Source: Terriglobia bacterium (lineage in GTDB: Bacteria; Acidobacteriota; Terriglobia; JAJPHL01; JAPKYU01). Taken from it: 64,000 nucleotides of DNA. Every line of letters starts with the position of its first letter. The first letter of the stretch is position 1. Where the stretch lies: contig CBDCVK010000006.1 of the NCBI GenBank assembly GCA_965223005.1, positions 64,001 to 128,000 on the forward strand, given 5' to 3'. This document shows, piece by piece, positions 2 to 27,897 of this stretch. The position numbers and the translations under genes were made by a program. The notes under the pieces were generated by a model, which ran no database searches, had not been told where the DNA came from, and saw only the letters and a program-made list of their open reading frames with translations.

Positions 2-1105
2 CGGAGCCTGGAGGGGGTAGCCGGTTGCTGGTTCAAGCGGAACGGCGGCCTCCATCAAAATCCCGATCGGCCTGCTGTGCCCATCAGCTCGCTTCCACCT
101 CCCGCCTATGATCTCGTAGATTTCGATGCTTATGAACGCGTGACGGGCGAACGCAAACTGCTCTATGGCACCAGTGTAGGCTGCCCCTATGCCTGCCATT
201 ACTGCACCGATACGGTCTTTTACAACCGGCGCTTCAACGCCTACAGCGCCCAGCGGGCGGAAGAGGAAATCACAGACCTAGTATCCCGCCACCGTCTGGA
301 TAAGGTAGCTTTGCTGGATTCGAACTTTCTGGTGGATACACGGCGCACCGTGGAAATCGCACGAAGATTGCTCGCATCCGGCTTGCAATTCCAGTGGAGC
401 TTTCAGGCCTCAACAGATCTGCTCTGCCGGCTGACGGATGAGGAAGTCCGCCTGCTGGGCGAAAGCGGCGTGAACCATATCGGGTTCGGCACCGAGTCGG
501 GTTCGGAAGAAGTCCTGCTGAAGATGAACAAGCGTCACCAGCGGATTCCGGACATGTTCGAGACAGCACGCAAATGCCGGCAGGCCGGGATCCGCGTTAC
601 CTTCAACCTCATCGTGGGCTACCCAGGAGAGACCGAGGCCGACCGCCAGGAAACCCTCCGGATTATGGGAGAAATCGGTGGACGCTTCGATAACGTCACT
701 TTCTCGCCGAACGTATTCACGCCCTACCCCGGCATCCCCATCTGGCCGGAACTGCGACGCCTGGGGGTCAAGGAGCCGCAATCTCTGGAAGCCTGGACCG
801 ACATCGCCCTGGGAACCAACCTATTACCCTGGTTGCAGGGCGAGCCGTACAGCCGCGTGAAACGGAGCCTGTCCTTCTTCCTGCTGAACAACGAGGTCAC
901 CAAGGCGGTGCGCCGGACCCGGGCTTCACGCTTTCAACGCCTCCTGCTGCGGGCTTTCCGTCAACCGTTGCGAATGCGGATGAAGTATCAGTTCTTTCGA
1001 TGGCCCTTGGAGCTTTGGCTGGTCCACGCGAAAAACAAGCTGGTCGTGCGCCGTTCCCTGCTGACCGGGCAAGGCCTCGGTTACAGCCTGGAGAAGATTT
1101 GCTAG
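2..1105 (+). CDS. Cobalamin-dependent-type radical SAM protein, 5'-truncated by the window edge
   Basis: Frame open from position 2; GCPYACHYC motif, LLDSNF, GFGTESGSEEVL, GYPGET, PYPG typical of the B12-binding rSAM family. The B12 domain lies outside the window. Confidence 0.85.
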   Translation, partial: RSLEGVAGCWFKRNGGLHQNPDRPAVPISSLPPPAYDLVDFDAYERVTGERKLLYGTSVGCPYACHYCTDTVFYNRRFNAYSAQRAEEEITDLVSRHRLDKVALLDSNFLVDTRRTVEIARRLLASGLQFQWSFQASTDLLCRLTDEEVRLLGESGVNHIGFGTESGSEEVLLKMNKRHQRIPDMFETARKCRQAGIRVTFNLIVGYPGETEADRQETLRIMGEIGGRFDNVTFSPNVFTPYPGIPIWPELRRLGVKEPQSLEAWTDIALGTNLLPWLQGEPYSRVKRSLSFFLLNNEVTKAVRRTRASRFQRLLLRAFRQPLRMRMKYQFFRWPLELWLVHAKNKLVVRRSLLTGQGLGYSLEKIC

Positions 1106-1163
1106 GTGCCGGTTGGAACGCCGAAAGGAGGCAAGACCGGAAGCAGAATAGGGATCGAATCCG

Positions 1164-2606
1164 ATGGTCGATATCCTCCTGACCCATTGCAACCATCTGT
1201 TCTTTGATCCGAAGCAGGTGCGGAAGATGCAGCCCTATCCTCCGCTGCAGACTCTGCTGGCGGCTGCTTTTCTGCGCCAGGAAGGATTCGACGTCGCCCT
1301 CTTTGATTCCACGTGGAGTCCTCCAGAGGAGGGATTTCGATCCGCCATGGCGCGGCATCGCCCGCGCCTGGTGGCTCTGTGCGAGGACAATTTTAACTTC
1401 CTCTCCAAGATGTGTCTGGCGAGGAACCGCGAGCTGGCCTTTTCCATGTGTCGCGCCGCCAAGGAGGCCGGAATCCCGACTCTGGTCAACAGTTCGGATG
1501 CCTCTGATCACGTGGCGGAGTACCTGGACCGGGATCTGGACTTCGTCCTGGTAGGCGAGCTTGAGATCACATTGTTGGAGATTACGCGGCATCTGCTGGG
1601 TCGCTCTTCGCGCCCAATGGAAGAGATTCCCGGCCTAGCCTACCGTCATCCCAGGGAGCGCGAGATCCGTCGCAATGCGCCTCGGCAGCCGATGACCAAC
1701 TTGGACCGACTGCCACTTCCGGCATGGGACTTGGTCGAGATTTCCAAGTACCGCGACGCCTGGGTCAGGGCCCACGGCTATTTCTCCCTCAACATGGTGT
1801 CCAGCCGTGGCTGCCCGTATCGATGCAACTGGTGCGCTAAGCCCATTTACGGCCAGACTTCCCAATTCCAAACACCGGAGCGAGTGGCCGAGGAAATGGG
1901 TTGCTTGAAGTCGACCCTTCGACCTGACCACCTCTGGTTTGCCGACGACATCTTCGCCCTTTCCCCGGGATGGACCTGGCGATTCGCCGAGGAGGTGGAA
2001 AAGCGGCAGGCCCAGATATCCTTTAAGATGCAGTCGCGCTGTGATTTGATGACTCGCGATACGGCGGATGCCCTCCGACGCGCAGGCTGCACCGAAATCT
2101 GGATGGGCGCCGAATCAGGTTCCCAAAAAGTCCTGGACGCGATGGAAAAAGGAATCCGCGTCGAGCAAATTTACGAGGCTTGTGAAAACCTGCGGCGCCA
2201 CGGGATCCGTGCCTGCCTCTTCCTCCAGTTTGGCTATCCGGGCGAAACGTGGCAGGACATTGAAAATACAATTCGGCTGGTCAGAGAAACAAGACCCGAC
2301 GACATTGGGGTCTCGGTTTCCTATCCATTACCGGGAACCAAATTTTTCGATTTCGTTTCGGCCCAGCTTGGCGCCAAGCGAAACTGGTCCGATAGCGACG
2401 GCCTGACGATCATGTTTCGCGGAAGCTATTCTAGCGATTTTTATCGCGTTCTCCGCGATGCGCTACATCTGGAAGTTAACTTACGCAATAGGAGGTGCCA
2501 AAACGGCGACAACCTGCAACGGCTTCAACACTTGTGGTCTCGAGTCAGAAAATTGGAGAAAACTTGCGTTAACCCCAATCCCACACCTTTATGGACCTGT
2601 TGCTGA
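1164..2606 (+). CDS. B12-binding domain radical SAM protein
   Basis: N-terminal PYPPL...DFVLVGELE B12-type domain; SRGCPYRCNWC; WMGAESGSQKVL; GYPGET. Confidence 0.9.
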   Translation: MVDILLTHCNHLFFDPKQVRKMQPYPPLQTLLAAAFLRQEGFDVALFDSTWSPPEEGFRSAMARHRPRLVALCEDNFNFLSKMCLARNRELAFSMCRAAKEAGIPTLVNSSDASDHVAEYLDRDLDFVLVGELEITLLEITRHLLGRSSRPMEEIPGLAYRHPREREIRRNAPRQPMTNLDRLPLPAWDLVEISKYRDAWVRAHGYFSLNMVSSRGCPYRCNWCAKPIYGQTSQFQTPERVAEEMGCLKSTLRPDHLWFADDIFALSPGWTWRFAEEVEKRQAQISFKMQSRCDLMTRDTADALRRAGCTEIWMGAESGSQKVLDAMEKGIRVEQIYEACENLRRHGIRACLFLQFGYPGETWQDIENTIRLVRETRPDDIGVSVSYPLPGTKFFDFVSAQLGAKRNWSDSDGLTIMFRGSYSSDFYRVLRDALHLEVNLRNRRCQNGDNLQRLQHLWSRVRKLEKTCVNPNPTPLWTCC

Positions 2607-3976
2607 CCCACGGCTACTTCCTCTACGAGGATACAAAAGAGCTTCAGATCATGAAGCAGTACGTGACCCTGGGAATCCTCTATCTCTCTTCCCACCTGCG
2701 AGAAAAGGGCTTCGACGTAGAAATTTACGACAGCACATTTGGGTCTCGGCAGGAGCTTTTCCGGATTCTTGAAACTGGGCCGCCTTCGGTGGTGGGAATC
2801 TACGTTAACCTCATGACCCGCCGGAATGTTCTGGACATCGCGGCGGCTGCACGGGCGGCGGGGTGGACCGTGGTCCTGGGAGGCCCCGAACCTTCGAACT
2901 ATCCTGGCGAGTATCTGCAGGCCGGCGCCCACGCCATCGTCGAGGGAGAAGGGGAAGTGACGATGGAGGAGCTATTGCACACCCTGGGTCAGAAGGAGGC
3001 GCTGCAACGGGTAAACCGAATCATATTCCGGCGACGAGATGGATCCGTGGCCCGTACTCCACCCCGAGCCCTTATTCCCAACCTGGATGCACAGCCCTGG
3101 CCTGACCGCGAGCGGGTGGACATGGACCGGTACTTGAAAGTGTGGCGCGAACACCACGGCGCGGGCTCCGTGTCGGTCATCACGGCACGCGGATGCCCTT
3201 ACCACTGCCGCTGGTGCAGCCACTCCACTTTCGGCAAGACCCACAGGCGCCGATCTATCCAAAGTGTAGCGGACGAAGTGGCGTGGGTCCTCGAGCGCTA
3301 TCAACCTGACATGCTGTGGATGGCCGACGATGTCTTTACAATTCATCCCGGCTGGATCCTGGAATACGCCGCGGAGATGAAACGGCGTGGGTTGCGAATC
3401 CCGTTCGAATGCATTACCCGTGCTGACCGGCTGAATCCGCGCATCGCTGAGGCTTTGGCCGAGCTCGGATGCTTCCGCGTCTGGATCGGCTCGGAGAGCG
3501 GGTCGCAGCGGATACTGGATGCCATGCAACGAGGGGTGACGGTAGAACAGGTTCGCGAGTCAGTTCGTCTCTGCCAGCAGCAGGGGATCCAGACGGGTAT
3601 GTTTCTTATGTGGGGCTACAACGGAGAGGAGTTGTCGGACATTGAGGCCACCGTGCAACACGTGAAAAGCTGCCAGCCGGATGTGTTCCTGACAACAGTT
3701 TCCTACCCTATTCAGGGAACTCCTTACTATGACTAGGTGGCGCCGCGTCTGATGCAGGTCCGCGACTGGGCGGAGAGCACGGACCGCGAACTAAAGATCG
3801 CCGGTCGTCATTCCAGGGGCTTTTACCAGTTCGCTGACCAGTTGCTGAAGAGCGAGGTGACCCTACAGAAGTTGGGCAACGCTACAGAGGATTCTGCTGC
3901 TGTGGCCACGCTGCGAAGCCAGATCGAGACCGCCCGCCGTGGGTTACTGGAAGCCTACGGGGAAGTGGAAGCATGA
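2591..3976 (+). pseudogene. B12-binding radical SAM gene interrupted by in-frame TAG at 3734-3736 (pseudogene or base-call error)
   Basis: VVLGGPEPS, IVEGEGE, ARGCPYHCRWC, GSESGSQ. ORFs 2591-3736 and 3737-3976 share a frame and together align colinearly with the 1164-2606 paralog. Confidence 0.8.
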
Positions 3977-4755
3977 GCGTTGCCGAAGCCTTTGATCAGC
4001 TGGCCCCCCGCTACGACGAGACGTGGACACGCTCTGTTGTCGGGCGCCTTCAGCGCGAGGCCGTCTGGAGAGAAATCGCCCCCCTCTTCCTCCCAGGAGC
4101 GCGGGTTTTGGATCTGGGTTGCGGAACGGGGGAGGACGCCTTGCACCTAGCTCGCGGTGGCGTCCGGGTCCATGCCATCGATGTTGCGCCGGGAATGGTC
4201 AAGATGACAAGGCAACGGCTGGAGTCGGACGGGCTTACGGGCCAGATCACGTGCGAAGTCTTGGCTGCCGAGGATCTTTTTCGCCTGAAAACTACAGGCG
4301 TATTTGACGGCGCGATCACAAACTTTGGCGTTCTGAACTGTGTTCGAGATCTCCGATCCTTGGCAGGGGAGCTAGCGCGGCTGGTTCGACCGGGCGGCCG
4401 GCTCGTGCTGTGTCCGATGGGGCGTTTCTACCTGTGGGAGACGATCTGGTATCTGCTGCGTGCCCGACTCGGCAAGGCCTTCCGCCGCCTGCGTCGCGGT
4501 GGCGTCACCGCTTCGGTGGGTTCTGGCCACTTTTTCCCGGTTTTCTACGCTTCGGTGGCCGACATCAGTGCGGCTTTTGAGCCATACTTCCGGCGAGTGG
4601 GTTTCCGGGGAATCGGGGTCTTTGTCCCGCCCCCTTCTGTAAAAGCCTCCCCTGGAGTATTCCGAGCATTGGTGTTGCTAGATCGGCTTTTCGCCGGCTG
4701 GCCGCTTCTGCGGGCCATAGGGGATCATTACCTGCTTATTTTTGTCCGAAGATGA
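3973..4755 (+). CDS. Class I SAM-dependent methyltransferase
   Basis: VLDLGCGTG motif I; FDGAITNFGVLN; LVRPGGRL; ATGA overlap with the upstream gene. Confidence 0.9.
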   Translation: MSVAEAFDQLAPRYDETWTRSVVGRLQREAVWREIAPLFLPGARVLDLGCGTGEDALHLARGGVRVHAIDVAPGMVKMTRQRLESDGLTGQITCEVLAAEDLFRLKTTGVFDGAITNFGVLNCVRDLRSLAGELARLVRPGGRLVLCPMGRFYLWETIWYLLRARLGKAFRRLRRGGVTASVGSGHFFPVFYASVADISAAFEPYFRRVGFRGIGVFVPPPSVKASPGVFRALVLLDRLFAGWPLLRAIGDHYLLIFVRR

Positions 4756-4758
4756 TCC

Positions 4759-5730
4759 ATGGCTGCTACTTCCTACGCAACTTCGCCGGAAGCGGGGACT
4801 CCTGATCTCGGGAGATCTGCATTCTTGAGGCTTCGCTGTCCTGCCTGCCTCCGACCTTCCGTCCGGCTGCAAGAGGTCACAGCCGAAGGGATGGTTTGCC
4901 TCAGCTGCGGCTACGCGCTGCGCAAAACTGAGAACATTCTGCGGGCGCTCCTACCAGGGCGTCAGAAATATTACGAGCATTCCAGGAAAGAATATTCAAA
5001 GATCCGTCGGGCAGAGGGCCGAGGATCCGAGAATCCATCTTACTATCTCGAATTGCCCTATAGGGATTTGACCGGCCGGCGTCGCGACGAGTGGGCCATC
5101 CGCGCGAAGACCTATCGGTACTTTGAAACCCACGTGCTTCCGGCTCAAACTCTGGATATCCTCGACCTGGGTGCCGGGAACGGCTGGACTTCTCACCGGC
5201 TGTCCCGGCGAGGCCATCGGCCGGTGGCCGTGGATATCCTCACAGATCCGATGGACGGCCTAGACGCGGCCCGGCACTATGGCGGCTTTCCCCTGGTGGA
5301 AGCGGAGTTTGACCGACTGCCTTTTGTCGACGGCCAGTTTGATCTGGCCATCTTCAACTCTGCACTGCATTACTCGACCGACTACCATCGGACCCTGCTC
5401 GAGGCGCGGCGCTGCCTGCGACCGACGGGCCGCATCGTCATTCTGGATTCGCCAATCTATAAACAGCGAAAGCATGGGGAGCAGATGCGGCGAGAGCGTC
5501 ACGAGCGATTTGAGGCGCTTTATGGCTTCCGCTCCGACAGCATTCCCAGTCTTGAGTACCTGTACGATTCGCTGCTCAAGCAGTTGTCCAGCGACCTGGG
5601 GCTGAGCTGGCAAATCCACCGGCCCTGGTACGGGTGGGGATGGCACCTCCGCCCCTGGAAGGCGCGCCTTGGGGGGCAGAGGCCGCCCTCCCGGTTCTGG
5701 ATCCTCGTTGGGAGCTTTTCGCAGCCATGA
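4759..5730 (+). CDS. Class I SAM-dependent methyltransferase with N-terminal Zn-ribbon (Trm112-like) segment
   Basis: CPAC...CLSC at the N-terminus; ILDLGAGNG; LPFVDGQFDLAIFNSALHY. Confidence 0.88.
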   Translation: MAATSYATSPEAGTPDLGRSAFLRLRCPACLRPSVRLQEVTAEGMVCLSCGYALRKTENILRALLPGRQKYYEHSRKEYSKIRRAEGRGSENPSYYLELPYRDLTGRRRDEWAIRAKTYRYFETHVLPAQTLDILDLGAGNGWTSHRLSRRGHRPVAVDILTDPMDGLDAARHYGGFPLVEAEFDRLPFVDGQFDLAIFNSALHYSTDYHRTLLEARRCLRPTGRIVILDSPIYKQRKHGEQMRRERHERFEALYGFRSDSIPSLEYLYDSLLKQLSSDLGLSWQIHRPWYGWGWHLRPWKARLGGQRPPSRFWILVGSFSQP

Positions 5731-7187
5731 TCGTCCTTCTGCATCCCCGGGCCACCAGGCCCAAGAACCGGCGCTTCCCCCTCTCCATCCTTGCGGTGGC
5801 GTCGGTCATCGAGGGCAGGGAAGATTACACGATCGTGGATGGTAACGTCGATCCTCACCCCTGGGAGTCCCTAGAACAGATTATGAAAGAAACCCCAGCG
5901 GAGCTTCTGGCGGTTTCTGTGATGCCCGGGCCTCAGATGGGGGCGGCCATCCCGCTTTGTCGCGCGTTTCGCCAAAAGTACCCGTCGGTTCCGATTGTCT
6001 GGGGTGGGTACTTTCCTTCCCTTTATCCCGACGCAACTCTTAATGCCCCGTACGTGGATTTCGCAGTCCGCGGGCAGGGAGAAGACACTTTTCTCGAGCT
6101 GCTCGCTGCCCTGCGCGACAGCTGGGACTTTTCCCGGATTTGCGGCCTCTCCTACAAAGATCGTTGTGGGTTGCACGTCCACAATCCTGAGCGGCCGATA
6201 CGGTCGCCGGAAGATTTTCCCTGGTTCCCCTATCACCGACTGGATACTTCGAAGTACATCCTACCGACGTTTCTCGGTTCGCGCACCGCCGTGCACCAGG
6301 CCAGCATTGGATGTCCGTTCCGTTGCAACTTCTGCGGAGTAGTCCCCGTCTACGGCCGGCAGAAAGTGGAATCCCCGTCGCGCACTGCTGCAGTGCTGGG
6401 ACATCTGAAGGAGCACTACGGGGTGAACGCCATCCAATTTTATGACAACAATTTCTTCCTGCGCGAGGATCACGCTCGAGAGCTAGCGGACCGCCTGACG
6501 CCGCTGCAGATGCGTTGGTGGTGTGAAGGACGCATCGACACGGTGCTCCGATACTCCGACGAAACGCTGCGTACACTCAAACGTGCAGGCGCCACCATGA
6601 TCTTCTTTGGCGCTGAGTCCGGTTCCGATGCCGTGCTCCGGCAAATGAAGAAGCAACTCAAAGCCGAGCAGATCCTGGCTCTGGCCAAAAGGATCCGGGA
6701 ATTTGGGATCGTCCCCGAGTTTTCCTTTGTCTTGGGCAACCCACAGGATCCGGAGCGTGACACCGAGGAGACGATCGCCTTCATCCGGAAGATCAAGCGG
6801 ATCAACACCCAGGCCGAGATCATCGTACAGCACTACATCCCCACGCCTCAACGGGATGAAATGTACGGTGGGGTCGACGGCAAAATCCAATTCCCGACCA
6901 CCCCGGAGCAGTGGGCTACCGAGCGGTGGTACAACTTCGCCACCCGAACTGATCCGCAGCTCGCTTGGCTTCCGGGCCGGATCAAGCAGCGCATCGACGA
7001 TTTCGAACTGGTGGTGACCTCACGCTGGCCAACTATCCAGGATATCCGCCTAAAACACTGGGGGCGGACCTTCCTTCAATTGCTGAGTAGTTGGCGCTAC
7101 AGGCTCGGCGTTTACGGGTACCCGTGGGAGCTCCAGTGGGCGCAGAAACTCGTCCATCTCAGAAAGCCTCGGTTGGAAAGCCTTTGA
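5727..7187 (+). CDS. B12-binding domain radical SAM protein
   Basis: ATG at 5727 (ATGA overlap); FPLSIL, PIVWGGYFPS, VRGQGE, GCPFRCNFC, FFGAESGS. Confidence 0.9.
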   Translation: MIVLLHPRATRPKNRRFPLSILAVASVIEGREDYTIVDGNVDPHPWESLEQIMKETPAELLAVSVMPGPQMGAAIPLCRAFRQKYPSVPIVWGGYFPSLYPDATLNAPYVDFAVRGQGEDTFLELLAALRDSWDFSRICGLSYKDRCGLHVHNPERPIRSPEDFPWFPYHRLDTSKYILPTFLGSRTAVHQASIGCPFRCNFCGVVPVYGRQKVESPSRTAAVLGHLKEHYGVNAIQFYDNNFFLREDHARELADRLTPLQMRWWCEGRIDTVLRYSDETLRTLKRAGATMIFFGAESGSDAVLRQMKKQLKAEQILALAKRIREFGIVPEFSFVLGNPQDPERDTEETIAFIRKIKRINTQAEIIVQHYIPTPQRDEMYGGVDGKIQFPTTPEQWATERWYNFATRTDPQLAWLPGRIKQRIDDFELVVTSRWPTIQDIRLKHWGRTFLQLLSSWRYRLGVYGYPWELQWAQKLVHLRKPRLESL

Positions 7188-7858
7188 AAGTTGCGCCGCT
7201 CGAAGGACACCGGCTCTGGTCTGAAACCTACGATGCCGATCCGAACCCGATGCTGGCGCTGGAATTCCGCATTGTCTCTGGAATGACGGGCAATCTGCTG
7301 GGAAAGCTCTTCCTAGACCTTGGTTGCGGAACGGGACGATGGCTAGCTGAGGCCCGAAGACAAGGTGCCAGGATCCTCGGTGTGGATCTGTGTCGCGACA
7401 TGTTGGTGCAAGCGGAACGCAAAGCGGGGCTTGCAGGTCGAGTAGCGCTGGCCGACGTTCGCCGCCTTCCCGTGCCGGATGGTAGCGCCGACGTGGTCCT
7501 GTGCGCCTTTTGTCTGGCATACCTGGAATCGCTGGCTACGGTGATGCAAGAACTGGCCCGGGCAGTAAAACCGGGGGGAGAGGTCATCACGAGCGACCTG
7601 CATCCGCAGACGCACTGCCGAGGTTGGACGCGCTCGTTTCGGAGCGGTTCTCAGGTTTACGAGATCGAACAACACCATTACACGGCCCGGGAACTTCTCG
7701 ATGCCGGTCACAGGGTGGGCCTGAAGCTGGAGGAGCTAGTGGAAGCTCGTTTTGCTGAGCCAGAGCGGGAGATCTTTCGCCGGGCAGGGAGGGAGCAGCT
7801 TTTCGACGAGCTGAGAGAAATCCCCGCCGTGCTGATCGCCCGGTGGAAGCGCCGGTGA
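7184..7858 (+). CDS. Class I SAM-dependent methyltransferase (BioC/type 11-like)
   Basis: TTG start overlapping the upstream TGA; FLDLGCGTG; ADVRRLP; VKPGG. Confidence 0.85.
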   Translation: MKVAPLEGHRLWSETYDADPNPMLALEFRIVSGMTGNLLGKLFLDLGCGTGRWLAEARRQGARILGVDLCRDMLVQAERKAGLAGRVALADVRRLPVPDGSADVVLCAFCLAYLESLATVMQELARAVKPGGEVITSDLHPQTHCRGWTRSFRSGSQVYEIEQHHYTARELLDAGHRVGLKLEELVEARFAEPEREIFRRAGREQLFDELREIPAVLIARWKRR

Positions 7859-7868
7859 GGAAGCGAGC

Positions 7869-9086
7869 ATGGCCCGACAGCGCTCGTGGATTTTGAGTGG
7901 CGCCAGAGTGGCCCTTGGGCCGGCCCGGGCTAACAAGCGGGAGATTGAAATCCGGGCCGGGAAGATCTGGGCAATTCGGGCGCCGGGGGAACGGCGGCGC
8001 ACGCGAAACACGCCGATCCTGGACCTCCGCGGCCACTTGATCCTCCCCGGGCTGATCAACGCCCACGATCATCTGGAGCTGAACCTTTTCCCCCGCCAGG
8101 GTCGCGGTCCTTATCCGAATGCGGCGGCTTGGGCCCGCCACATCTACCGGCCCGGGGAATCTCCGATCAAGGATCACCTGCGGATACCCAAGGCCACGCG
8201 TCTTGTGTGGGGCGGCCTAAAGAACCTCCTCAGCGGCGTGACCACGGTCTGCCACCATAATCCCCGGGAGAACTCGATCTTGGACCGCAACTTCCCCGTC
8301 CGCGTGGTAAAGCGATTTGGATGGGCGCATTCCCTCGAGTTCAGCCCCGACCTGGCCGAGCGTTTTCGCCGAACCCCGCCCGGTTGGCCTTTCCTGGTGC
8401 ACCTGGGAGAAGCGACGGATAGAGCCGGCAGGTGCGAGGTCTTTCGGCTGGATCAGATGGGGGCCCTCGACCATCGTACAGTACTGGTTCATGCCGTCGC
8501 ACTGGATCGCCAGGGGTGGCGCCTCGTGCAAAGCAAAGCCGCCTCCGTGGTTTGGTGCCCCAGCTCGAATCTGTTCCTGTTGGGCCGCACGCTGACTCCT
8601 GGGGTGCTACGAAGCGGCATTCTTGTGGCCCTGGGCACCGATTCAGCGCTGACGGCGACCGGCGATCTTCTGGACGAACTCCGCGCAGCGCGGAGTGCCA
8701 GTCGTCTGTCGCGCGGCGATCTTTACCGCATGGTAACCGAACAGGCGGCACAGGTCTTGCGTCTGGAAAAGGGAGCGGGCAGAGTGTCAGAGGGAGGCCC
8801 CGCCGACCTTGTGGCCGTCCGCGACCGAGGACGAAGCCCGGCCGCAACACTCTGTGGCCTGGTGAGCCGGGGCCCTGAAATGGTTATGGTCGCCGGTCAG
8901 ATCAAGCTTGTTTCTCCTTCCCTGGCGGTTCAGCTACCGGCTTTCGTTCGTCGCCGCCTCTATCCGCTGGCCGTCCAAGGGAGAGGAAAAGCTCTGGTTG
9001 ACGCCAACGTTCCTGAGCTGCATCGCCGGGCGACTCGAGTGCTGGGTCCCGAAATTCGCGTCGCGGGAAAGCGGGTGCGGGCATGA
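7869..9086 (+). CDS. Metal-dependent amidohydrolase/deaminase
   Basis: PGLINAHDH (HxH), GVTTV, VHLGE, LVHAV, CPSSN, LGTDS, GPADL amidohydrolase motifs. Confidence 0.88.
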   Translation: MARQRSWILSGARVALGPARANKREIEIRAGKIWAIRAPGERRRTRNTPILDLRGHLILPGLINAHDHLELNLFPRQGRGPYPNAAAWARHIYRPGESPIKDHLRIPKATRLVWGGLKNLLSGVTTVCHHNPRENSILDRNFPVRVVKRFGWAHSLEFSPDLAERFRRTPPGWPFLVHLGEATDRAGRCEVFRLDQMGALDHRTVLVHAVALDRQGWRLVQSKAASVVWCPSSNLFLLGRTLTPGVLRSGILVALGTDSALTATGDLLDELRAARSASRLSRGDLYRMVTEQAAQVLRLEKGAGRVSEGGPADLVAVRDRGRSPAATLCGLVSRGPEMVMVAGQIKLVSPSLAVQLPAFVRRRLYPLAVQGRGKALVDANVPELHRRATRVLGPEIRVAGKRVRA

Positions 9087-10099
9087 ATTCCTCCCGGCAG
9101 AACTACGAGATCGAGAAGCTGCCCATTCTCATTCTGTTTCCGCACAGTCGCTGCAATTGCCGTTGCATCATGTGCGACATCTGGAAAATCGAGACTGTCC
9201 GGGAAATCGCCGCCGCCGAGCTAGATCGTCACGCCGGGGACATCGAGGCTCTGGGCGTGGAATGGGTCGTTTTTTCCGGCGGTGAACCGCTCATGCATTC
9301 GGACCTGTTCCGGTTGTGCGAACGCCTCCGGGCGTTGGGAATTCGCACCACGATTCTGACCACCGGCCTTCTGCTCGGTAGGTATTCCCGTCGAATCGTC
9401 GAGCACCTGGACGGCGTAATTGTTTCCCTGGATGGCCCCCCAGAGGTTCACGACCGCATACGTCGTATCCCGCACGCTTTCGACCTCCTGGCGGCAGGCG
9501 TGCGAGCCTTGCGCCGGCTAAGGCCGGAATTCCACGTGGCAGCTCGCTGCACGGTCCAGAAGCAGAACGTCGGCCGTTTAGCGGAAACAGTGAAGGCGGC
9601 GCGTCAGCTCGGCCTGCGATCGATTTCGTTCCTCGCAGCGGATTTGAACTCTACTGCGTTCAATCGGCCGCAGAGCTGGCCAACCGAGCGCCAGGCGGAA
9701 GTCGGCTTGAACACGGAAGAGCTGCTTGTCCTTGAGAAAGAGATAGAGGCGATGATCCGCGATGACGCGGGCTATCTGAAGACCGGATTCATTCTGGAGG
9801 CGCCGGAAAAGTTGCGACGTATCGTCCATCATTTTCGGGCGCACCAGGGTATGGTGGAGCCGGTCGCGCCGCGTTGCAACGCACCATGGGTGTCCGCCGT
9901 TGTGGAATCGGATGGTACAGTTCGCCCCTGTTTCTTTCACCGACCGATTGGTAATCTTGGAGGGCGTTCACTTCGGCAGGTCCTGAACAGCCCAGAGGCC
10001 TTCGAGTTCCGGAGGACCCTGGACATCCCGCGAAATCCTATTTGCCAGCGCTGTGTCTGCTCCCTTTACTTGACATCAAACAAGCCCCTCCCCTCCTGA
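9083..10099 (+). CDS. Radical SAM protein with C-terminal SPASM/twitch-type Cys domain
   Basis: CNCRCIMC; FSGGEPL; SLDG...HDRIR; C-terminal CNAPW...DGTVRPC...CQRCVC. Confidence 0.9.
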   Translation: MNSSRQNYEIEKLPILILFPHSRCNCRCIMCDIWKIETVREIAAAELDRHAGDIEALGVEWVVFSGGEPLMHSDLFRLCERLRALGIRTTILTTGLLLGRYSRRIVEHLDGVIVSLDGPPEVHDRIRRIPHAFDLLAAGVRALRRLRPEFHVAARCTVQKQNVGRLAETVKAARQLGLRSISFLAADLNSTAFNRPQSWPTERQAEVGLNTEELLVLEKEIEAMIRDDAGYLKTGFILEAPEKLRRIVHHFRAHQGMVEPVAPRCNAPWVSAVVESDGTVRPCFFHRPIGNLGGRSLRQVLNSPEAFEFRRTLDIPRNPICQRCVCSLYLTSNKPLPS

Positions 10100-10558
10100 A
10101 TTCGGCTAGACGCTTGCACGGGAAAGCCAAATAACCTGTTGGACTGCCCAAGCGAAATCACTGTAGCGGGGAGTCAAAGTGCAGGCGGTGAGAAGCTCTC
10201 TGGATGCCGGGCAATTTCTCTCTTCCTCGCGCTATCTTGGCGCCTGGGTACAATTGATTACCCATACTTGCTCGGGCAGTTAGTGTTGTCCCAAAGAATC
10301 TGTCACTCTGGCTGGGCTGGTTGCTTTTTCTTCTCGGCGCCCTCTGTGCTTTCTTCTACGCTTAATACTTGCATGACTGAGGGAGAGAGGGCGATGGCAC
10401 CCTTGCCCTTTCCGACGCCTCTACTTGGCGGTGTTGTGTGAGGGCACAAGCCTAGTTTGGCAGGGCGATATGAGACGCACTCCGGCGCGCCTTTAGGTTG
10501 GTTTTGGAACCAAATGGAACCGAGATGGGGTAGGGAAGACCCCGAAGTGTTTGAAAAA

Positions 10559-10735: not shown

Positions 10736-11542
10736 TTACGTCGGGAAGAATGGGTTCAAAGTGCCGCAAGCGGGACAATCGTAGCGGGGCAAGACCTTGC
10801 CCCGCACGTGCCCCAGTGTGCGCAACCAGGCCGCATCATGGCTGCTGCCGCAGCGGATACAGACGTTGGATTCCGACGGGTCTTCCGAAACTTCCCGACC
10901 GCCCTGACGGCTGAAGTGGAACAGCCAGCCGTAAGTGCTCCAGCGGGTTCCCAGGCGACGGTCGGCGGCCCGGACCAGGGCATTCCAGGCCAGCAGAGTG
11001 ACACGCAGGAAGCGCGGAGGTGCCCAGTTCAAAACCTGCGCCCGACCGCCCCATCGCTGGCCCGGCTGCCGATTCAAAAACGAATAGGAGGAATAGAGCA
11101 AGCGATAGCGCTGGGGCCACAAGCCACCTTCCCGCGCGGCCGCCACCAGCTCCTCCCGACGGAAGCGGTTCACGTGTTCGCGTCCCTTGTCTAGGAAGCG
11201 GAAGAGCGCGGCCGATAGACAGTATCCGTCGGGAACGTTAACCAGCACGATCCCTTCTGGTTTCAAGACGCGGGCCGCTTCGCGCAGAGCGCTTGGCCAA
11301 TTTCGGATGTGCTCCAGGGTGTGGTTGGCGATAATTAGATCGCAGCAAGCATCGGGCAGTGGTAGCGACGCCGCATCTGCTCGCACAAAACCACCCTGAC
11401 GCAGGTGGGGAATTACTGGCGGCGCGCGCAAATCTACACCCACGACGCAGCAGGAGGCAACGGCGTAGGAGAGGCTGCCAGCCCCGCAGCCCAGGTCGAG
11501 CGCCATTTGCTTCGGACCAAGTTGGGCCAGTAGCCGGTTCAC
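10736..11542 (-). CDS. Type 11 methyltransferase with C-terminal Zn-ribbon
   Basis: ALDLGCGAG; ADAASLPL; HTLEH; VLKPEG; C-terminal CIRC...CPAC. Confidence 0.85.
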   Translation of the reverse strand: MNRLLAQLGPKQMALDLGCGAGSLSYAVASCCVVGVDLRAPPVIPHLRQGGFVRADAASLPLPDACCDLIIANHTLEHIRNWPSALREAARVLKPEGIVLVNVPDGYCLSAALFRFLDKGREHVNRFRREELVAAAREGGLWPQRYRLLYSSYSFLNRQPGQRWGGRAQVLNWAPPRFLRVTLLAWNALVRAADRRLGTRWSTYGWLFHFSRQGGREVSEDPSESNVCIRCGSSHDAAWLRTLGHVRGKVLPRYDCPACGTLNPFFPT

Positions 11543-11768: not shown

Positions 11769-11984
11769 ATGAAGTTAACTCACGAAGAGGTGCGAGAGTG
11801 GTTTGTGATGCGCGACCATGTGCGGAGGGTAGTGCAGCAGCTGGAAGTGTGTAATCGCTGCTGGCGAGTGCGCGATCAGGCCCACTTGATCCGGATCGCT
11901 GGACTGCATTGTTGCAGCCCGGATGATGAGGAAGGCTGCCTGAGCCCTCGGGCAACGCGCAGAGTCCGAGCTCGGACAGCCTGA
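11769..11984 (+). CDS. Small Cys-rich hypothetical protein (71 aa)
   Basis: Strong SD GGAGGT upstream of the ATG; CNRC, CC and C residues; fills an intergenic gap. Confidence 0.6.
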   Translation: MKLTHEEVREWFVMRDHVRRVVQQLEVCNRCWRVRDQAHLIRIAGLHCCSPDDEEGCLSPRATRRVRARTA

Positions 11985-12115
11985 CTCCTTCCGAGCTGCG
12001 CCCAGTTGCGTCTGCGGCGGCAGGCTACGCACCTCTTTCATTTGGATACTCCCGCGCCGGACGATTCATCGAGAAACAGTTGTGGTAGGAGGCCAGCCAG
12101 ACCAATTGTTTCCGG

Positions 12116-19001: not shown

Positions 19002-20440
19002 GAGAGTGTCTCACCTTTAGTTGAAAGTCGAGCGGCGGTTCGCTGACCTGGTTCCGTAGAATCGGGTTGGGAAACTTTCTGGAAAGGGGAACCGCCGTGC
19101 AGAGAAGCTACCACATCCTAGGCCGGAGCGATAGCCGAAGCTCCCGCAAACTGGCTGCCTACCTGGCTCGCCACGGGCAGTTTCTGCTGCCCTGGGTGGA
19201 GTTGATCGAACAATCGCGGTTAGCCGTCGACGAGCTGATCGACGTGGTGGGTAGGGCGGCGATTGAAGCGGTGCTGGAGTTGTCGGCCGCGCAGGTGGCC
19301 GGTCCACGCCGTCAGGGCCGGCGGCGCCGTGGGGTAGGCTGGTATGGGCGCCAGCGGGGACGGGTGCGCCTGAAGGAGAGAAAGCTGGCCGTGCACAGGC
19401 CACGGCTCCGGCGGCCAGGCCGGGGAGCGGGGAAAGAAGTTCCCCTCCCGGCCTACGAAGCCATGCAGGAGGGCGAGGGTCTGGGGGCCCGGATGTTGGA
19501 TATCTTGCTGCGGGGCGTCTCGACCCGGCAGTACCAGCGGGTGTTGCCGGAGATGGCGGACACCGTGGGTGTGTCGCGCTCCACGGTCAGCCGGGAAACG
19601 ATGGAGGCTGCCGCAGCCGAGTTAGAACGTCTGTTGAACCGCCGCTTCGAGGAAGTAGAGTTGCTGATCCTCTACATCGACGGGATGGTGTTTGGCGACC
19701 ATCACGTGATTGCGGCTGTGGGCGTGGATGCGGAAGGGCACAAGCACGTGCTGGGGATTCAGGAGGGGGCTACGGAGAACGCCGCGGCCGTCCAGGACTT
19801 GCTGGAAGGTTTAGTGCGGCGAGGGGTGCAGCCGGCCCAGAAACGGCTGTTTGTGATCGACGGCTCGAAGGCCTTGCGGGCGGCGATCCGCGCCGTGTTC
19901 GGGGCCGAGCAGCCGGTGCAGCGCTGCCGCGCCCACAAGTTGCGCAACGTCCTGGACCGGTTGCCGGAGCCAGAGCGGGACCAGGTGCGGGCGGCGATGC
20001 GGGCCGCCTGGCGGTTGGATCCGAAGACCGGCAGGGCCAAGCTGGAGAAGTTGGCCCAATGGTTGGAGCGAGATTGTCCGGCCGCGGCGGCCAGCTTGCG
20101 GGAGGGTCTGGAGGAATGTTTCACCATCAACCGGCTGGGGCTTCCGGCTTCGCTGCATCGCTGTCTGGCCACCACCAATCTCATCGAGAGTCCGCAGGCG
20201 GGAGTGAGGTTGCGAACTCGCCGGGTGTGCCGCTGGCGGGATGCGGCCATGGTCCAGCGCTGGGTCGCCTCCAGCTTCCTGGCCACGGAGAAAAACTTCC
20301 GCCGCCTGATGGGGTACCAGGACCTGTGGATGTTGAAAGCGATCCTCGAAGGATCAAAGTCGGCCACTCGACGGGAGGTGGCGTAGTATGATGGCTCCGA
20401 ACCGCCGCTACGAACTTTCAACTGAGTTCAGGACACCCTC
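19002..20440 (+). mobile_element. Complete IS256-family insertion sequence (1439 bp)
   Basis: Imperfect ~41-bp terminal IRs (GAGAGTGTC..AGTTGAAAGT..AGCGGCGGTTCG / GAGGGTGTC..AGTTGAAAGT..AGCGGCGGTTCG); 8-bp TSD GTGCTGAT at 18994-19001 and 20441-20448. Confidence 0.95.
19067..20386 (+). CDS. IS256 (Mutator-like) transposase
   Basis: GVSTR, LYIDG, VIDGSKAL, QRCRAHKLRN, TTNLIES motifs. Confidence 0.95.
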   Translation: MGNFLERGTAVQRSYHILGRSDSRSSRKLAAYLARHGQFLLPWVELIEQSRLAVDELIDVVGRAAIEAVLELSAAQVAGPRRQGRRRRGVGWYGRQRGRVRLKERKLAVHRPRLRRPGRGAGKEVPLPAYEAMQEGEGLGARMLDILLRGVSTRQYQRVLPEMADTVGVSRSTVSRETMEAAAAELERLLNRRFEEVELLILYIDGMVFGDHHVIAAVGVDAEGHKHVLGIQEGATENAAAVQDLLEGLVRRGVQPAQKRLFVIDGSKALRAAIRAVFGAEQPVQRCRAHKLRNVLDRLPEPERDQVRAAMRAAWRLDPKTGRAKLEKLAQWLERDCPAAAASLREGLEECFTINRLGLPASLHRCLATTNLIESPQAGVRLRTRRVCRWRDAAMVQRWVASSFLATEKNFRRLMGYQDLWMLKAILEGSKSATRREVA

Positions 20441-26433: not shown

Positions 26434-27897
26434 ATGCGCATCCTGATGGCGGCGTCGGAGGGGGTGCCGTTTTCCAAAACAGGTGGATTGGCCGATGTGA
26501 TGGGGGCTTTACCCCAGGCTATTGCCCGATTGGGTCACGAGGTGGCGGTGGTTCTGCCCCGCTACCGTACGACACCGCTGGACACGCTGCGCCCTGTGTT
26601 GCCCAGCCTGACAATCCCGTTGGGGCGGAAGCTCCACTTCCCCGCAGTGCTGGCGGGTCCCCCGAAGGACGGTCTTCGCACATTCTTCATTGACTACCCA
26701 CCGTACTTTGACCGATCGGCCCTTTATGGCACCTCGGAAGCCGGCGACTACCCGGACAACGCCGAGCGCTTCGCGCTGTTTTCTCGCGCCGTACTGGAAA
26801 CGGCCAAGTTGCTGTTCCCGACCGATATGGTGCATTGCCACGACTGGCAGACAGGCTTGGTTCCAGTGTTGCTGAAAACGGCCTACGCCGAGGATCCGGC
26901 GTTGAAAAATGCCGCCACCCTGTTTACCCTTCATAACCTGGGCTATCAGGGGCTGTTTCCTGCCGAAGTGCTGGAGCGGATCGGCCTGGGCCGGGACCTG
27001 TTCACCATTGATGGCTTGGAGTTTTTCGGCAAGATGAACTTCCTCAAGGGAGCGTTGCTCTACGCCGACTTCGTGAACACGGTCAGCAAAGCCTACACTG
27101 ACGAGATTCAGACGGCCGACTACGGCTTTGGCCTGCACAGCGTTCTCCGGCTCCGGTCGGCGGCGCTGGCAGGTATCCTGAACGGCGTGGACTACACGAC
27201 CTGGAATCCTGCCACCGACCCCTACATTGCTGCCAGCTATACCCCAGAAGACCTCAGCGGCAAACGCATTTGCAAGAAAGACCTGCTGAAGGAATTTCGG
27301 TTGCCCGCAAGGAACCTGGATCGGCCTCTGATTGGAATCGTATCGCGCTTGACAGCACAGAAAGGGGCCGATCTGGTTGCCGAAGTCGCCGGGGTTCTCG
27401 CCCAGGAGGACTTCTATCTGGTCGTTCTGGGGGCGGGCGACAAGCCATACGAGACCCTTTTTCGTCGCCTGGCGCGGCAGTACCCGCGCAAGATTGCGGT
27501 CCGGATCGCCTACGACAACGTTCTGGCCCACAAGATTGAAGCGGGCGCGGACACGTTCCTGATGCCTTCCCGCTACGAGCCCTGCGGCCTGAGCCAGATT
27601 TACAGCCTCAAGTACGGGACCGTGCCCATCGTTCGTGCCACCGGCGGCCTGGACGACACCATCGAGCCCTACCACTCTCGTACGCGCACCGGCACGGGCT
27701 TCAAATTTCGCATATACTCAGGGCAGGCCCTGCTGGAAACGGTGCGGCGGGCACTTCGCGTCTACCGGAACCGGGCCACGTGGCACCGTCTCATGCGGAA
27801 TGGCATGAGGAAGGACTTTTCCTGGGATGTTTCAGCTAGGGAGTATGTCGCCGTCTACGAGAAGGTTGTCCGCACCGGGCGGGCGGCTGCCGGCTGA
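26434..27897 (+). CDS. glgA: Glycogen synthase
   Basis: KTGGLADV; HCHDWQT; HNLGYQG; PSRYEPCGL; TGGLDDT. Confidence 0.96.
   Translation: MRILMAASEGVPFSKTGGLADVMGALPQAIARLGHEVAVVLPRYRTTPLDTLRPVLPSLTIPLGRKLHFPAVLAGPPKDGLRTFFIDYPPYFDRSALYGTSEAGDYPDNAERFALFSRAVLETAKLLFPTDMVHCHDWQTGLVPVLLKTAYAEDPALKNAATLFTLHNLGYQGLFPAEVLERIGLGRDLFTIDGLEFFGKMNFLKGALLYADFVNTVSKAYTDEIQTADYGFGLHSVLRLRSAALAGILNGVDYTTWNPATDPYIAASYTPEDLSGKRICKKDLLKEFRLPARNLDRPLIGIVSRLTAQKGADLVAEVAGVLAQEDFYLVVLGAGDKPYETLFRRLARQYPRKIAVRIAYDNVLAHKIEAGADTFLMPSRYEPCGLSQIYSLKYGTVPIVRATGGLDDTIEPYHSRTRTGTGFKFRIYSGQALLETVRRALRVYRNRATWHRLMRNGMRKDFSWDVSAREYVAVYEKVVRTGRAAAG

Follow-up and report, generated by a model that had tools for sequence, protein, structure and literature searches.

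The stretch of DNA analysed here, 64,000 nucleotides from a Terriglobia bacterium (the window; G000:C6:64001-128000, from a 96% complete assembly of 3.24 Mb in 10 contigs), begins with a dense run of genes for radical S-adenosylmethionine (rSAM) enzymes, methyltransferases and an amidohydrolase. The organism belongs, by its FtsK relatives, to class Terriglobia of the Acidobacteriota. Nine open reading frames (ORFs) on the + strand fill positions 2-10099 in the ORF list, and the DNA upstream of the window (L002), read with Pfam, adds the rest of the gene at the left edge and one further whole gene, giving an operon of ten genes that we letter A-J from 5' to 3' (Table 1). Throughout, domain calls are those of Pfam and family calls those of NCBIfam with its curated cut-offs. 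Adjacent genes are separated by 3-58 nt or overlap by 4-16 nt, and a 450-nt gap lies between gene A and the preceding, unrelated molybdopterin oxidoreductase gene. A-J is a predicted single operon that encodes five cobalamin (B12)-binding rSAM enzymes, three class I methyltransferases, one deaminase-type amidohydrolase and one BlsE-like rSAM/SPASM enzyme. A preliminary description of the window had read nine same-strand genes, mostly overlapping or a few nucleotides apart and continuing past the left edge, and the ORF list, the junctions and the upstream DNA agree with it on each point. The domain classes that it assigned (rSAM, rSAM-SPASM, class I methyltransferase, amidohydrolase) are also those called by Pfam; its five rSAM enzymes, four of them B12-type, are all present, but the full count is six, five of them B12-type, in a total of ten genes.

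The CxxxCxxC motif is present in all six rSAM enzymes, and the B12-type enzymes are related to one another, with identities of 42% for A/B, 34% for C/D (E 3e-82) and 32% for A/G; the two genes beginning at 1164 and 2591 had been recognised as paralogs from the outset. The in-window part of gene B shows the Radical_SAM domain only, because the window edge cuts the gene, and the B12-binding domain of gene C scores 26.7 bits, under the Pfam cut-off of 32.1. The nine gene models first proposed hold as ORFs, but two of their start codons and one apparent gap do not. Gene G most likely starts at ATG 5727, not at 5634, because this codon and the stop of gene F overlap as ATGA and the alignments of most orthologues begin near residue 30. 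Likewise, gene H most likely starts at TTG 7184, not at 7091, given the TTGA overlap with the stop of gene G.

The apparent gap, 237 nt at 3737-3976, is not intergenic. The frame that follows the TAG at 3734-3736 encodes the conserved C-terminus of gene D, and its end overlaps the start of gene E as ATGA. Orthologues of gene D read through the position of the TAG to about 460 aa in all 14 examined, and in 72 loci tblastn places the detached segment at the unbroken C-terminal end of D. We compared contigs of four public sequencing runs (X1, X3, X7 and X8) over this stretch. Position 3734 is T in X1, the run most like the window, and G, giving GAG (Glu), in X3, X7 and X8, which come from three other studies. 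Because the contigs of these three studies read GAG, the sequence evidence indicates that the stop codon is a strain-level variant and not a trait of the system. Since the stop cuts gene D, the cassette may be impaired in the window strain. A further difference lies at position 3881, which is G in the window and T in all four runs, X1 included, reflecting either an Ala-to-Ser change or an error in the window assembly.

Table 1. Genes of the predicted A-J operon and the detached end of gene D (window positions; negative values lie upstream of the window).
Gene	Product	Position	Strand	Evidence
A	B12-binding radical SAM, 529 aa	-2027..-438, outside the window (L002:15973-17562)	+	Pfam B12-binding and Radical_SAM; CxxxCxxC at residue 224
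B	B12-binding radical SAM, 499 aa	-394..1105 (L002:17606-19105); in-window part 2..1105	+	Pfam B12-binding and Radical_SAM in the full ORF; CxxxCxxC at residue 193
C	B12-binding radical SAM, 480 aa	1164..2606	+	Pfam Radical_SAM, 84 bits; CPYRCNWC at residue 217
D	B12-binding radical SAM, cut to 381 aa	2591..3736	+	Pfam B12-binding and Radical_SAM; in-frame TAG 3734-3736
D, detached C-terminus	79 codons, beginning GTG, in frame directly after the TAG	3737..3976	+	ORF list; tblastn
E	Class I SAM methyltransferase, 260 aa	3973..4755	+	Pfam Methyltransf_25/11; motif I VLDLGCGTG
F	Class I SAM methyltransferase, 323 aa	4759..5730	+	Pfam Methyltransf_11; motif I ILDLGAGNG
G	B12-binding radical SAM, 486 aa from probable ATG 5727	5727..7187 (longest ORF from GTG 5634)	+	Pfam B12-binding and Radical_SAM; CPFRCNFC
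H	Class I SAM methyltransferase, 224 aa from probable TTG 7184	7184..7858 (longest ORF from 7091)	+	Pfam Methyltransf_11, 81.8 bits
I	Amidohydrolase, deaminase/chlorohydrolase type, 405 aa	7869..9086	+	Pfam Amidohydro_1
J	Radical SAM with C-terminal SPASM/twitch-type cysteine cluster, 338 aa	9083..10099	+	Pfam Radical_SAM and SPASM; CNCRCIMC at residue 24

The cassette recurs as a unit in other genomes, a point on which the preliminary description had made its proposal depend. A gene J orthologue (E <= 1e-30) is found in 23 of 401 genomes of the phylum, G000 included. Fourteen of the 22 other J-bearing regions were fetched, and in 12 of them five to ten cassette genes form a single block; of the remaining two, one runs into a contig end and the other shows J and a G-like gene alone. 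A gene J profile returned 529 relatives in species-representative genomes, from which the best 80 (47-66% identity) were taken. At least four cassette genes lie in the same order in 60 of these 80 loci, a recurrence well beyond chance, and of the 55 loci whose flank upstream of J reaches 9.9 kb or more, 49 have at least four. Within these 55 full-flank loci, E and G are each present in 46, D in 45, C in 44, I in 43, H in 40, F in 34, B in 31 and A in 25, although the 10-kb flank limit makes the counts for A and B too low; their orthologues occupy the same place in other genomes. The minimal form of the cassette is C-D-E-G-J. Acidobacteriota account for 63 of the best 80 loci and one is unclassified, while the other 16 come from eight Chloroflexota, two Nitrospirillum isolates and one each of Verrucomicrobiia, Latescibacterota, Caldithrix, a gammaproteobacterial metagenome-assembled genome (MAG), Cyclobacteriaceae and Entotheonella. 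Carriers in these 16 loci point to horizontal spread, and the overall pattern points to a cassette that has probably been both inherited and horizontally spread as a unit.

Several individual loci depart from this pattern. What is left in a Bryobacteraceae chromosome (L051:7698-9992) is J and an I shortened to 286 aa, immediately preceded by a Mu-type transposase gene and with HprK-like and Wzi genes downstream; the cassette there looks as if a mobile element had broken it up. In G280, whose full-length cassette is the most similar one, an IS200-type transposase (L026:17098-17739) lies between J and the NTP_transf_5/HprK-like pair, and in G335 (L027:8836-10252) gene B appears as two adjacent tblastn pieces and may be frameshifted or interrupted. 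The cassette of a MAG titled Verrucomicrobiia (L071) is followed by genes for a cytochrome c, a cupredoxin, a 350-aa protein, Wza and Wzi, as in the Acidoferrales-type MAGs L077, L105 and L106; this likeness suggests either a recent transfer or a binning error. Finally, in Candidatus Entotheonella palauensis (L116:6752-11508), J lies beside genes for a GT9 glycosyltransferase, an HprK-like protein (34.5% identity with the one in the window genome), NTP_transf_5 and a methyltransferase, and a B12-binding gene, cut by the contig end, comes after J.

To describe the surroundings of the cassette, we clustered 473 flank ORFs from 73 loci and scanned the cluster representatives for families. The recurring neighbours, with the number of loci in brackets, are HPr-kinase-C-like (14), NTP_transf_5 (12), GT4/Bac_transf (10 + 9), Wzy_C (4 + 4), Wzi (6) and Wza-type exporters (6), together with lineage-restricted cytochromes c, response regulators and a TIG-domain protein. 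A GT4/Bac_transf, Wzy, Wza or Wzi gene lies within 7 kb in 30 of the 73 loci, rising to 38 when HprK-like/NTP_transf_5 genes are included. The 101 immediate neighbours include 21 polysaccharide genes (GT4 6, Wzy_C 3, Bac_transf 3, MurJ/MOP flippase 3, Wzi 2, GT87 2, GDP-mannose-dehydratase-like 1, PIG-L 1), 6 HprK/NTP_transf_5 genes and 45 without a Pfam match. The neighbours of the cassette are strongly enriched for Wzx/Wzy-type polysaccharide genes and for the HprK-like/NTP_transf_5 pair; the GT4 base rate, estimated from five of these genomes, is 112 domains in 25.9 Mb.

In several loci these neighbours are closely coupled to the cassette. HprK-like or NTP_transf_5 genes stand beside the cassette in 16 of the 73 loci, though each is single-copy in the window genome, and the pair, or NTP_transf_5 alone, follows J on the same strand in L053, L057, L061, L063, L066 and L070. 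The gammaproteobacterial MAG (L095) has the order GT4, ABC exporter, C, D, E, G, J, methyltransferase, GT4, GT4, Wzi, Wzi, Wza, with overlapping stops and starts. In Chloroflexota loci, GT4 genes bracket the cassette, and one of them is 47% identical to a cassette-flanking GT4 of Acidobacteriota. Co-location with a Wzx/Wzy locus, seen in the 30 loci above, in L095 and in L066, is not found in the window itself. The recurring kinase/nucleotidyltransferase pair has a precedent: in the available text of PMC8498205, HPr-kinase homologues place a phosphate on the C-terminal Ser of lasso precursors, and a nucleotidyltransferase then attaches hexoses to it. The systems of the phospho-glycosylated lasso peptides paeninodin and pseudomycoidin share the two domain types side by side, but here lasso cyclase and protease genes are lacking and the pair sits in polysaccharide loci. 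The HPr-kinase-like neighbours score 40-43 bits against the HprK_rel_A/B cut-off of 200, and the literature on PF14907 and on HprK-related kinases yielded nothing related. An apparent recurring upstream gene, 'unk116', proved to be only the cut C-terminus of gene A.

The genome of the window carries a related set of genes at a distance from the cassette. Contig C10 (G000:C10:74000-86000; L122, L123) holds GT-C-like, HprK-like, NTP_transf_5, two GT4, Wzz, Bac_transf, Wzy_C and TIG-like genes. Orthologues of the GT4, HprK-like, NTP_transf_5, Wzy, Bac_transf and TIG-like proteins, 35-51% identical, directly adjoin the cassette in L003, L042, L044, L049, L066, L068 and L069; the database searched held duplicates of some loci, and counts of loci from it are upper bounds. 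In L066 the order is G-H-I-J, GT4, HprK, NTP_transf_5, GT4, then Wzz and Wzy, and the cassette and a polysaccharide locus are therefore contiguous there. As judged by these matches, the window genome keeps the corresponding polysaccharide locus on another contig, syntenic with the cassette flanks of its relatives. An orthologue of the GT4 that flanks the cassette across phyla was sought in the window genome and gave only 37-38% matches, elsewhere. The GT4 match at 26434-27897 of the window was considered as an extracellular polysaccharide gene and is instead a glycogen/starch synthase.

Genes A, B, C, D and G have the architecture of class B (cobalamin-binding) rSAM enzymes, with a B12-binding domain followed by an rSAM core bearing CxxxCxxC. 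The NCBIfam match highest for gene C is the hopanoid enzyme HpnJ (TIGR03471), with 120.6 bits for C, 113.0 for G, 109.8 for D and 67.1 for B against a cut-off of 577.6. Genes D and G match BchE (TIGR02026) best, at 122.3 and 123.3 bits, followed by C at 103.0 and B at 68.8, against a cut-off of 481.35. The top match of gene B is ApyD, at 79.8 bits against 750, and the models of peptide B12-rSAM methylases (TIGR03975 and ApyD, NF050148) score 59-102 bits against cut-offs of 282 and 750. Gene E matches CpaM best (71 bits against 180), and also matches models of quinone and Mg-protoporphyrin methyltransferases. Within PDB, the best sequence matches of C and G are 9CCB and then AprD4 (E 5e-15 for C, 1e-13 for G). 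Because AprD4, among the closest solved structures, is a dehydratase, methylation by these enzymes cannot be assumed; by analogy, the chemistry of A, B, C, D and G would be methyl transfer or rearrangement.

Comparison with characterised systems places these likenesses in context. HpnJ, which forms the cyclitol ether of hopanoids, has the same B12-binding plus rSAM architecture as the B12-type enzymes of the cassette. In the available text of PMC13459092, HpnJ and the calditol synthase Cds are rSAM enzymes proposed to remodel sugar head groups once a glycosyltransferase has acted and, like the cassette, they act next to glycosyltransferases on a sugar moiety; in contrast to them, the cassette has no hopanoid or archaeal lipid genes nearby, its HpnJ scores of 110-121 lie far from 577.6, and it combines three to five paralogous B12-rSAM enzymes with a SPASM enzyme, methyltransferases and a deaminase in polymer-export loci. 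The sugar-tailoring rSAM enzymes of aminoglycoside and nucleoside antibiotics (AprD4, BlsE, BtrN) provide a second parallel, as C and G resemble AprD4 and J resembles BlsE, whereas no antibiotic scaffold genes are seen beside the cassette, whose context is Wzx/Wzy polysaccharide assembly. GenK and GenD1 are further rSAM enzymes of this sugar-tailoring group. Clusters for proteusins and other peptides made on the ribosome and modified after translation (RiPPs) of the PoyB/C type, and ApyD, likewise combine several B12-rSAM enzymes with a class I methyltransferase, but the cassette has no precursor peptide or RRE, and the ApyD cut-off of 750 is far above gene B. Similarly, the tetrapyrrole enzymes BchE, BchQ and BchR are B12-rSAM enzymes, and BchE tops the lists of D and G at 122-123 bits (cut-off 481), but there are no other bacteriochlorophyll genes in the cassette or its flanks.

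Gene J is a SPASM/twitch rSAM enzyme by its domain score (Pfam SPASM 46.5 bits, cut-off 21.5), and its residues C265, C283, C321, C324 and C326 are invariant in 13 orthologues. The protein begins directly at the rSAM core and has no N-terminal RRE domain. Its best PDB match by profile is BlsE (7VOB; E 6.5e-22), and BlsE is also the closest fold to its predicted structure (predicted local distance difference test (pLDDT) 89.4) over the full length, with E 4.8e-17, TMq 0.65 and 22% identity. The fold also matches CteB and anSME, and the C-terminus matches BtrN in a PDB sequence search. The BlsE cytosylglucuronate decarboxylase model (TIGR04466) gives 63 bits against a cut-off of 400; ScmE is the top NCBIfam match, and NirJ and Ahb enzymes are also matched. 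The gene J family is large, with at least 7,993 protein clusters at E <= 1e-40 among 8,000 candidates scored, and its relatives carry generic names only.

Gene I belongs with the cog0402-type deaminases of the amidohydrolase superfamily, as its metal ligands and catalytic set are intact and its fold and profile matches agree. H66 and H68 (HxH), H178 and E181 (HxxE), H208 and D258 are invariant in 10 orthologues. The best PDB sequence matches are 4DYK/4GBD, 4F0R and TM0936, and the top fold match of the model (pLDDT 87.8) is 4GBD (template-modelling (TM) score 0.75), the structure of a methylthioadenosine (MTA) deaminase solved with methylthio-coformycin bound. The fold list is flat, with chlorohydrolases and guanine and isocytosine deaminases scoring as high as those acting on MTA or S-adenosylhomocysteine (SAH). 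Relative to the MTA/SAH/5'-deoxyadenosine deaminases (4GBD, 4DYK, 4F0R, TM0936), gene I has the same fold and the full HxH, HxxE, H, D set, but it is only about 20% identical and is 30-50 residues shorter in the substrate-binding half. It scores 61.3 bits with the 5'-deoxyadenosine deaminase model (NF005557; cut-off 522), and its top NCBIfam match is a TRZ/ATZ hydrolase. Given that gene I is missing from some cassettes, such as those of Chloroflexota, it would be an accessory step, serving either product tailoring or the clearing of 5'-deoxyadenosine and SAH, both of which nine SAM-consuming enzymes would produce in quantity. Amidohydrolases of Leptospira and Pseudaminobacter that came up in the search for relatives of gene I are unrelated housekeeping enzymes, and that search gave one true relative only.

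We propose, with roughly even confidence, that A-J serves a Wzx/Wzy-type surface-polysaccharide (glycoconjugate) pathway as an accessory cassette that tailors a sugar-derived unit. This glycan reading fits the genomic surroundings seen in several phyla and the operon fusions, as well as the resemblance to BlsE, AprD4 and HpnJ. Working in the cytoplasm, the enzymes would take as substrate a nucleotide sugar, a lipid-linked repeat unit or a small substituent for later attachment. Among the B12-rSAM enzymes, C, D and G, joined in some cassettes by A and B, would each convert SAM to a 5'-deoxyadenosyl radical that abstracts H from an unactivated carbon. They would then either pass on the methyl group of methylcobalamin or bring about a rearrangement or deoxygenation of the ring, for which HpnJ is a proposed and AprD4 a demonstrated example. 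The BlsE-like J would oxidise or decarboxylate a sugar carbon by radical chemistry, and E, F and H would add O- or N-methyl groups. The Zn deaminase-type hydrolase I may deaminate an amino or amidine group of an intermediate, or else 5'-deoxyadenosine and SAH, thereby relieving product inhibition. The glycosyltransferases and the kinase/nucleotidyltransferase pair could then build the product into the polymer. A more specific and bolder proposal, possible but doubtful, is that this is the first multi-enzyme B12/rSAM cassette for a bacterial exopolysaccharide, in which three to five B12-rSAM enzymes and the BlsE-like enzyme rewrite the carbon skeleton of the repeat-unit sugar (C-methylation, decarboxylation, ring contraction), the HPr-kinase-like/nucleotidyltransferase pair installs it through a phospho-linkage, and the resulting alkylated, degradation-resistant polymer is widespread in soil Acidobacteriota.

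A number of observations weigh against assigning the cassette to polysaccharide tailoring. Adjacency to polysaccharide genes is linkage and does not identify a substrate, and in the window genome the cassette lies amid housekeeping genes (Mo-oxidoreductase, FtsK, UppP and others) with no adjoining polysaccharide gene. The recurring glycan and HprK/NTP_transf_5 families are lacking within 7 kb in 35 of the 73 loci, many of which have short flanks. NTP_transf_5 is present in 268 of the 401 phylum genomes (a tally that, alone among the results given here, draws on the unpublished genomes G152 and G049), and because so many genomes have it, its co-occurrence with the cassette says nothing and only its adjacency is informative. 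The sole characterised precedent found for an HPr-kinase homologue with a nucleotidyltransferase acts, in the available text of PMC8498205, on the C-terminal serine of a peptide. No cassette protein reaches an NCBIfam cut-off, each best match being 3-9 times below its threshold, and the likenesses described above are all at superfamily level. Genes C and G match the peptide methylase 9CCB better than AprD4, and the next structural neighbours of gene J are the peptide maturases CteB, SkfB and SuiB, which are longer proteins.

The last two points belong equally to a RiPP-like pathway, in which the B12-rSAM enzymes would C-methylate a peptide or protein encoded elsewhere, J would cross-link or epimerise it, the HprK-like/NTP_transf_5 pair would phospho-glycosylate a serine, and the polysaccharide genes would build a glycan on the peptide. 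The search listing ties 9CCB to a paper on a methyl-coenzyme M reductase (MCR) glutamine methylase, ApyD and RiPP C-methyltransferase models are among the NCBIfam matches, scoring like the others, CteB, SkfB and SuiB hold the second rank in the fold comparison of J, and a kinase/nucleotidyltransferase pair does act on the Ser phosphate of lasso precursors in the available text of PMC8498205. Against this, the small-ORF comparison across loci found no conserved small ORF in or beside the cassette in any of them; gene J starts at the rSAM core, without an RRE; and the flanks scanned show no lasso B or C genes, peptidase or YcaO. A PqqD/RRE search of the window genome gave no match, while the same search matched 4 of 14 control genomes; an NHLP-leader search of the window genome was also negative, but its control matched 0 of the 14 genomes, and this negative therefore carries no weight. 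The small ORFs that precede A, and the ORFs at 10139-10441 and 11775-12041, were considered as precursors and rejected, since they match no Pfam or NCBIfam family and lack homologues in other loci. That Wzy_C domains are also part of protein O-oligosaccharyltransferases counts for a peptide or protein substrate, and on balance we regard this alternative as unlikely. A membrane lipid would be a still less probable substrate, whether through methylation or cyclisation of alkyl or isoprenoid chains, as in branched tetraethers and hopanoids, or through modification of a glycolipid aglycone. HpnJ, HpnR and ladderane-type lipid B12-rSAM models are matched at 60-120 bits, GT4 enzymes include glycolipid synthases (weak NCBIfam matches), and L095 and L099 have fused ABC exporters next to the cassette; the available literature names the glycerol dialkyl glycerol tetraether (GDGT) ring synthase, Gmm, HpnP and HpnR as B12-rSAM lipid modifiers. 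Every lipid-family match nonetheless lies far under its cut-off, and the flank families include no squalene/hopene, hopanoid, fatty-acid, ether-lipid or Tes/Mss-type genes. Carriers are scattered, with 23 among 401 genomes of the phylum, and extend to Nitrospirillum and Chloroflexota, and the neighbours Wzy, Wza, Wzi, Bac_transf and MOP flippases speak for polymer export and not for membrane-lipid synthesis.

The isolation of the cassette among housekeeping genes in the window genome would fit a stand-alone pathway to a diffusible metabolite or cofactor of nucleoside, tetrapyrrole or quinone type, with the polysaccharide adjacency elsewhere reflecting shared genomic islands. Such a pathway would also fit the BchE matches of D and G, the NirJ/Ahb matches of J, the quinone and Mg-protoporphyrin methyltransferase matches of E, the resemblance of I to nucleoside and aminofutalosine deaminases, and the origin of BlsE, the closest structure to J, in a nucleoside-antibiotic pathway. 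These family matches are, however, all far under their cut-offs, the operon is fused with GT4, HprK-like and NTP_transf_5 genes in several lineages, and neither the cassette nor its recurring flanks contain a scaffold-forming gene (polyketide synthase, non-ribosomal peptide synthetase, cyclase, or tetrapyrrole or quinone core enzymes), leaving this alternative with the same low probability as a peptide substrate. The preliminary description had named a RiPP or protein, a lipid and a glycan as candidate substrates. Of these, the polysaccharide neighbours favour the glycan or glycoconjugate, whereas the missing small ORF and PqqD/RRE matches count against the peptide and the missing lipid genes against the lipid; its specific suggestion of branched-tetraether or hopanoid methylation found no support, with no hopanoid or fatty-acid genes seen beside the cassette.

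B12-dependent rSAM enzymes are familiar from antibiotics, cofactors, lipids and peptides. The preliminary description did not recognise the operon as a characterised pathway, and this assessment stands, as all NCBIfam scores are far under cut-off and the literature searched, including the available text of the 2026 reviews PMC12931638 and PMC13459092, describes no such cassette and no B12-rSAM enzyme in polysaccharide assembly. The cassette is thus a set of known enzyme kinds in a context that the literature searched does not describe. If glycan tailoring is its true function, it would bring new radical chemistry to glycobiology, help to explain the make-up and soil persistence of acidobacterial extracellular polymers, and offer enzymology five paralogous B12-rSAM enzymes with one shared substrate. 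The cassette is common across soil Acidobacteriota and has spread to other phyla, and with the Nitrospirillum isolates and one Acidobacteriaceae isolate available as cultured carriers, the question is directly testable.

Some minor features surround the operon and its counterparts. An Rfam scan of 7.2 kb around the operon start found no riboswitch and no other RNA, and promoter and terminator scans at both operon ends found nothing boundary-marking above shuffled controls. A fourth class I methyltransferase gene (10736-11542, - strand) converges on the operon end, and its product is 30-33% identical to F and H; considered as a cassette member, it was rejected, since other loci give only paralogue-level F/H matches and it is not conserved beside the cassette. 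The polysaccharide locus on C10 includes three small ORFs (L122:17847-19022) without a family match or a homologue in other loci. Both this genome (L002:8091-11920) and the closest Bryobacteraceae relative (L003:844-3346) have MacB/FtsX-type ABC transporter genes at 4-8 kb upstream of the cassette, which may be a coincidence. Within the window, a Mutator-family transposase gene (19067-20386) lies 9 kb downstream of J, amid genes for RNase J, ArgJ, KsgA and GlgA.

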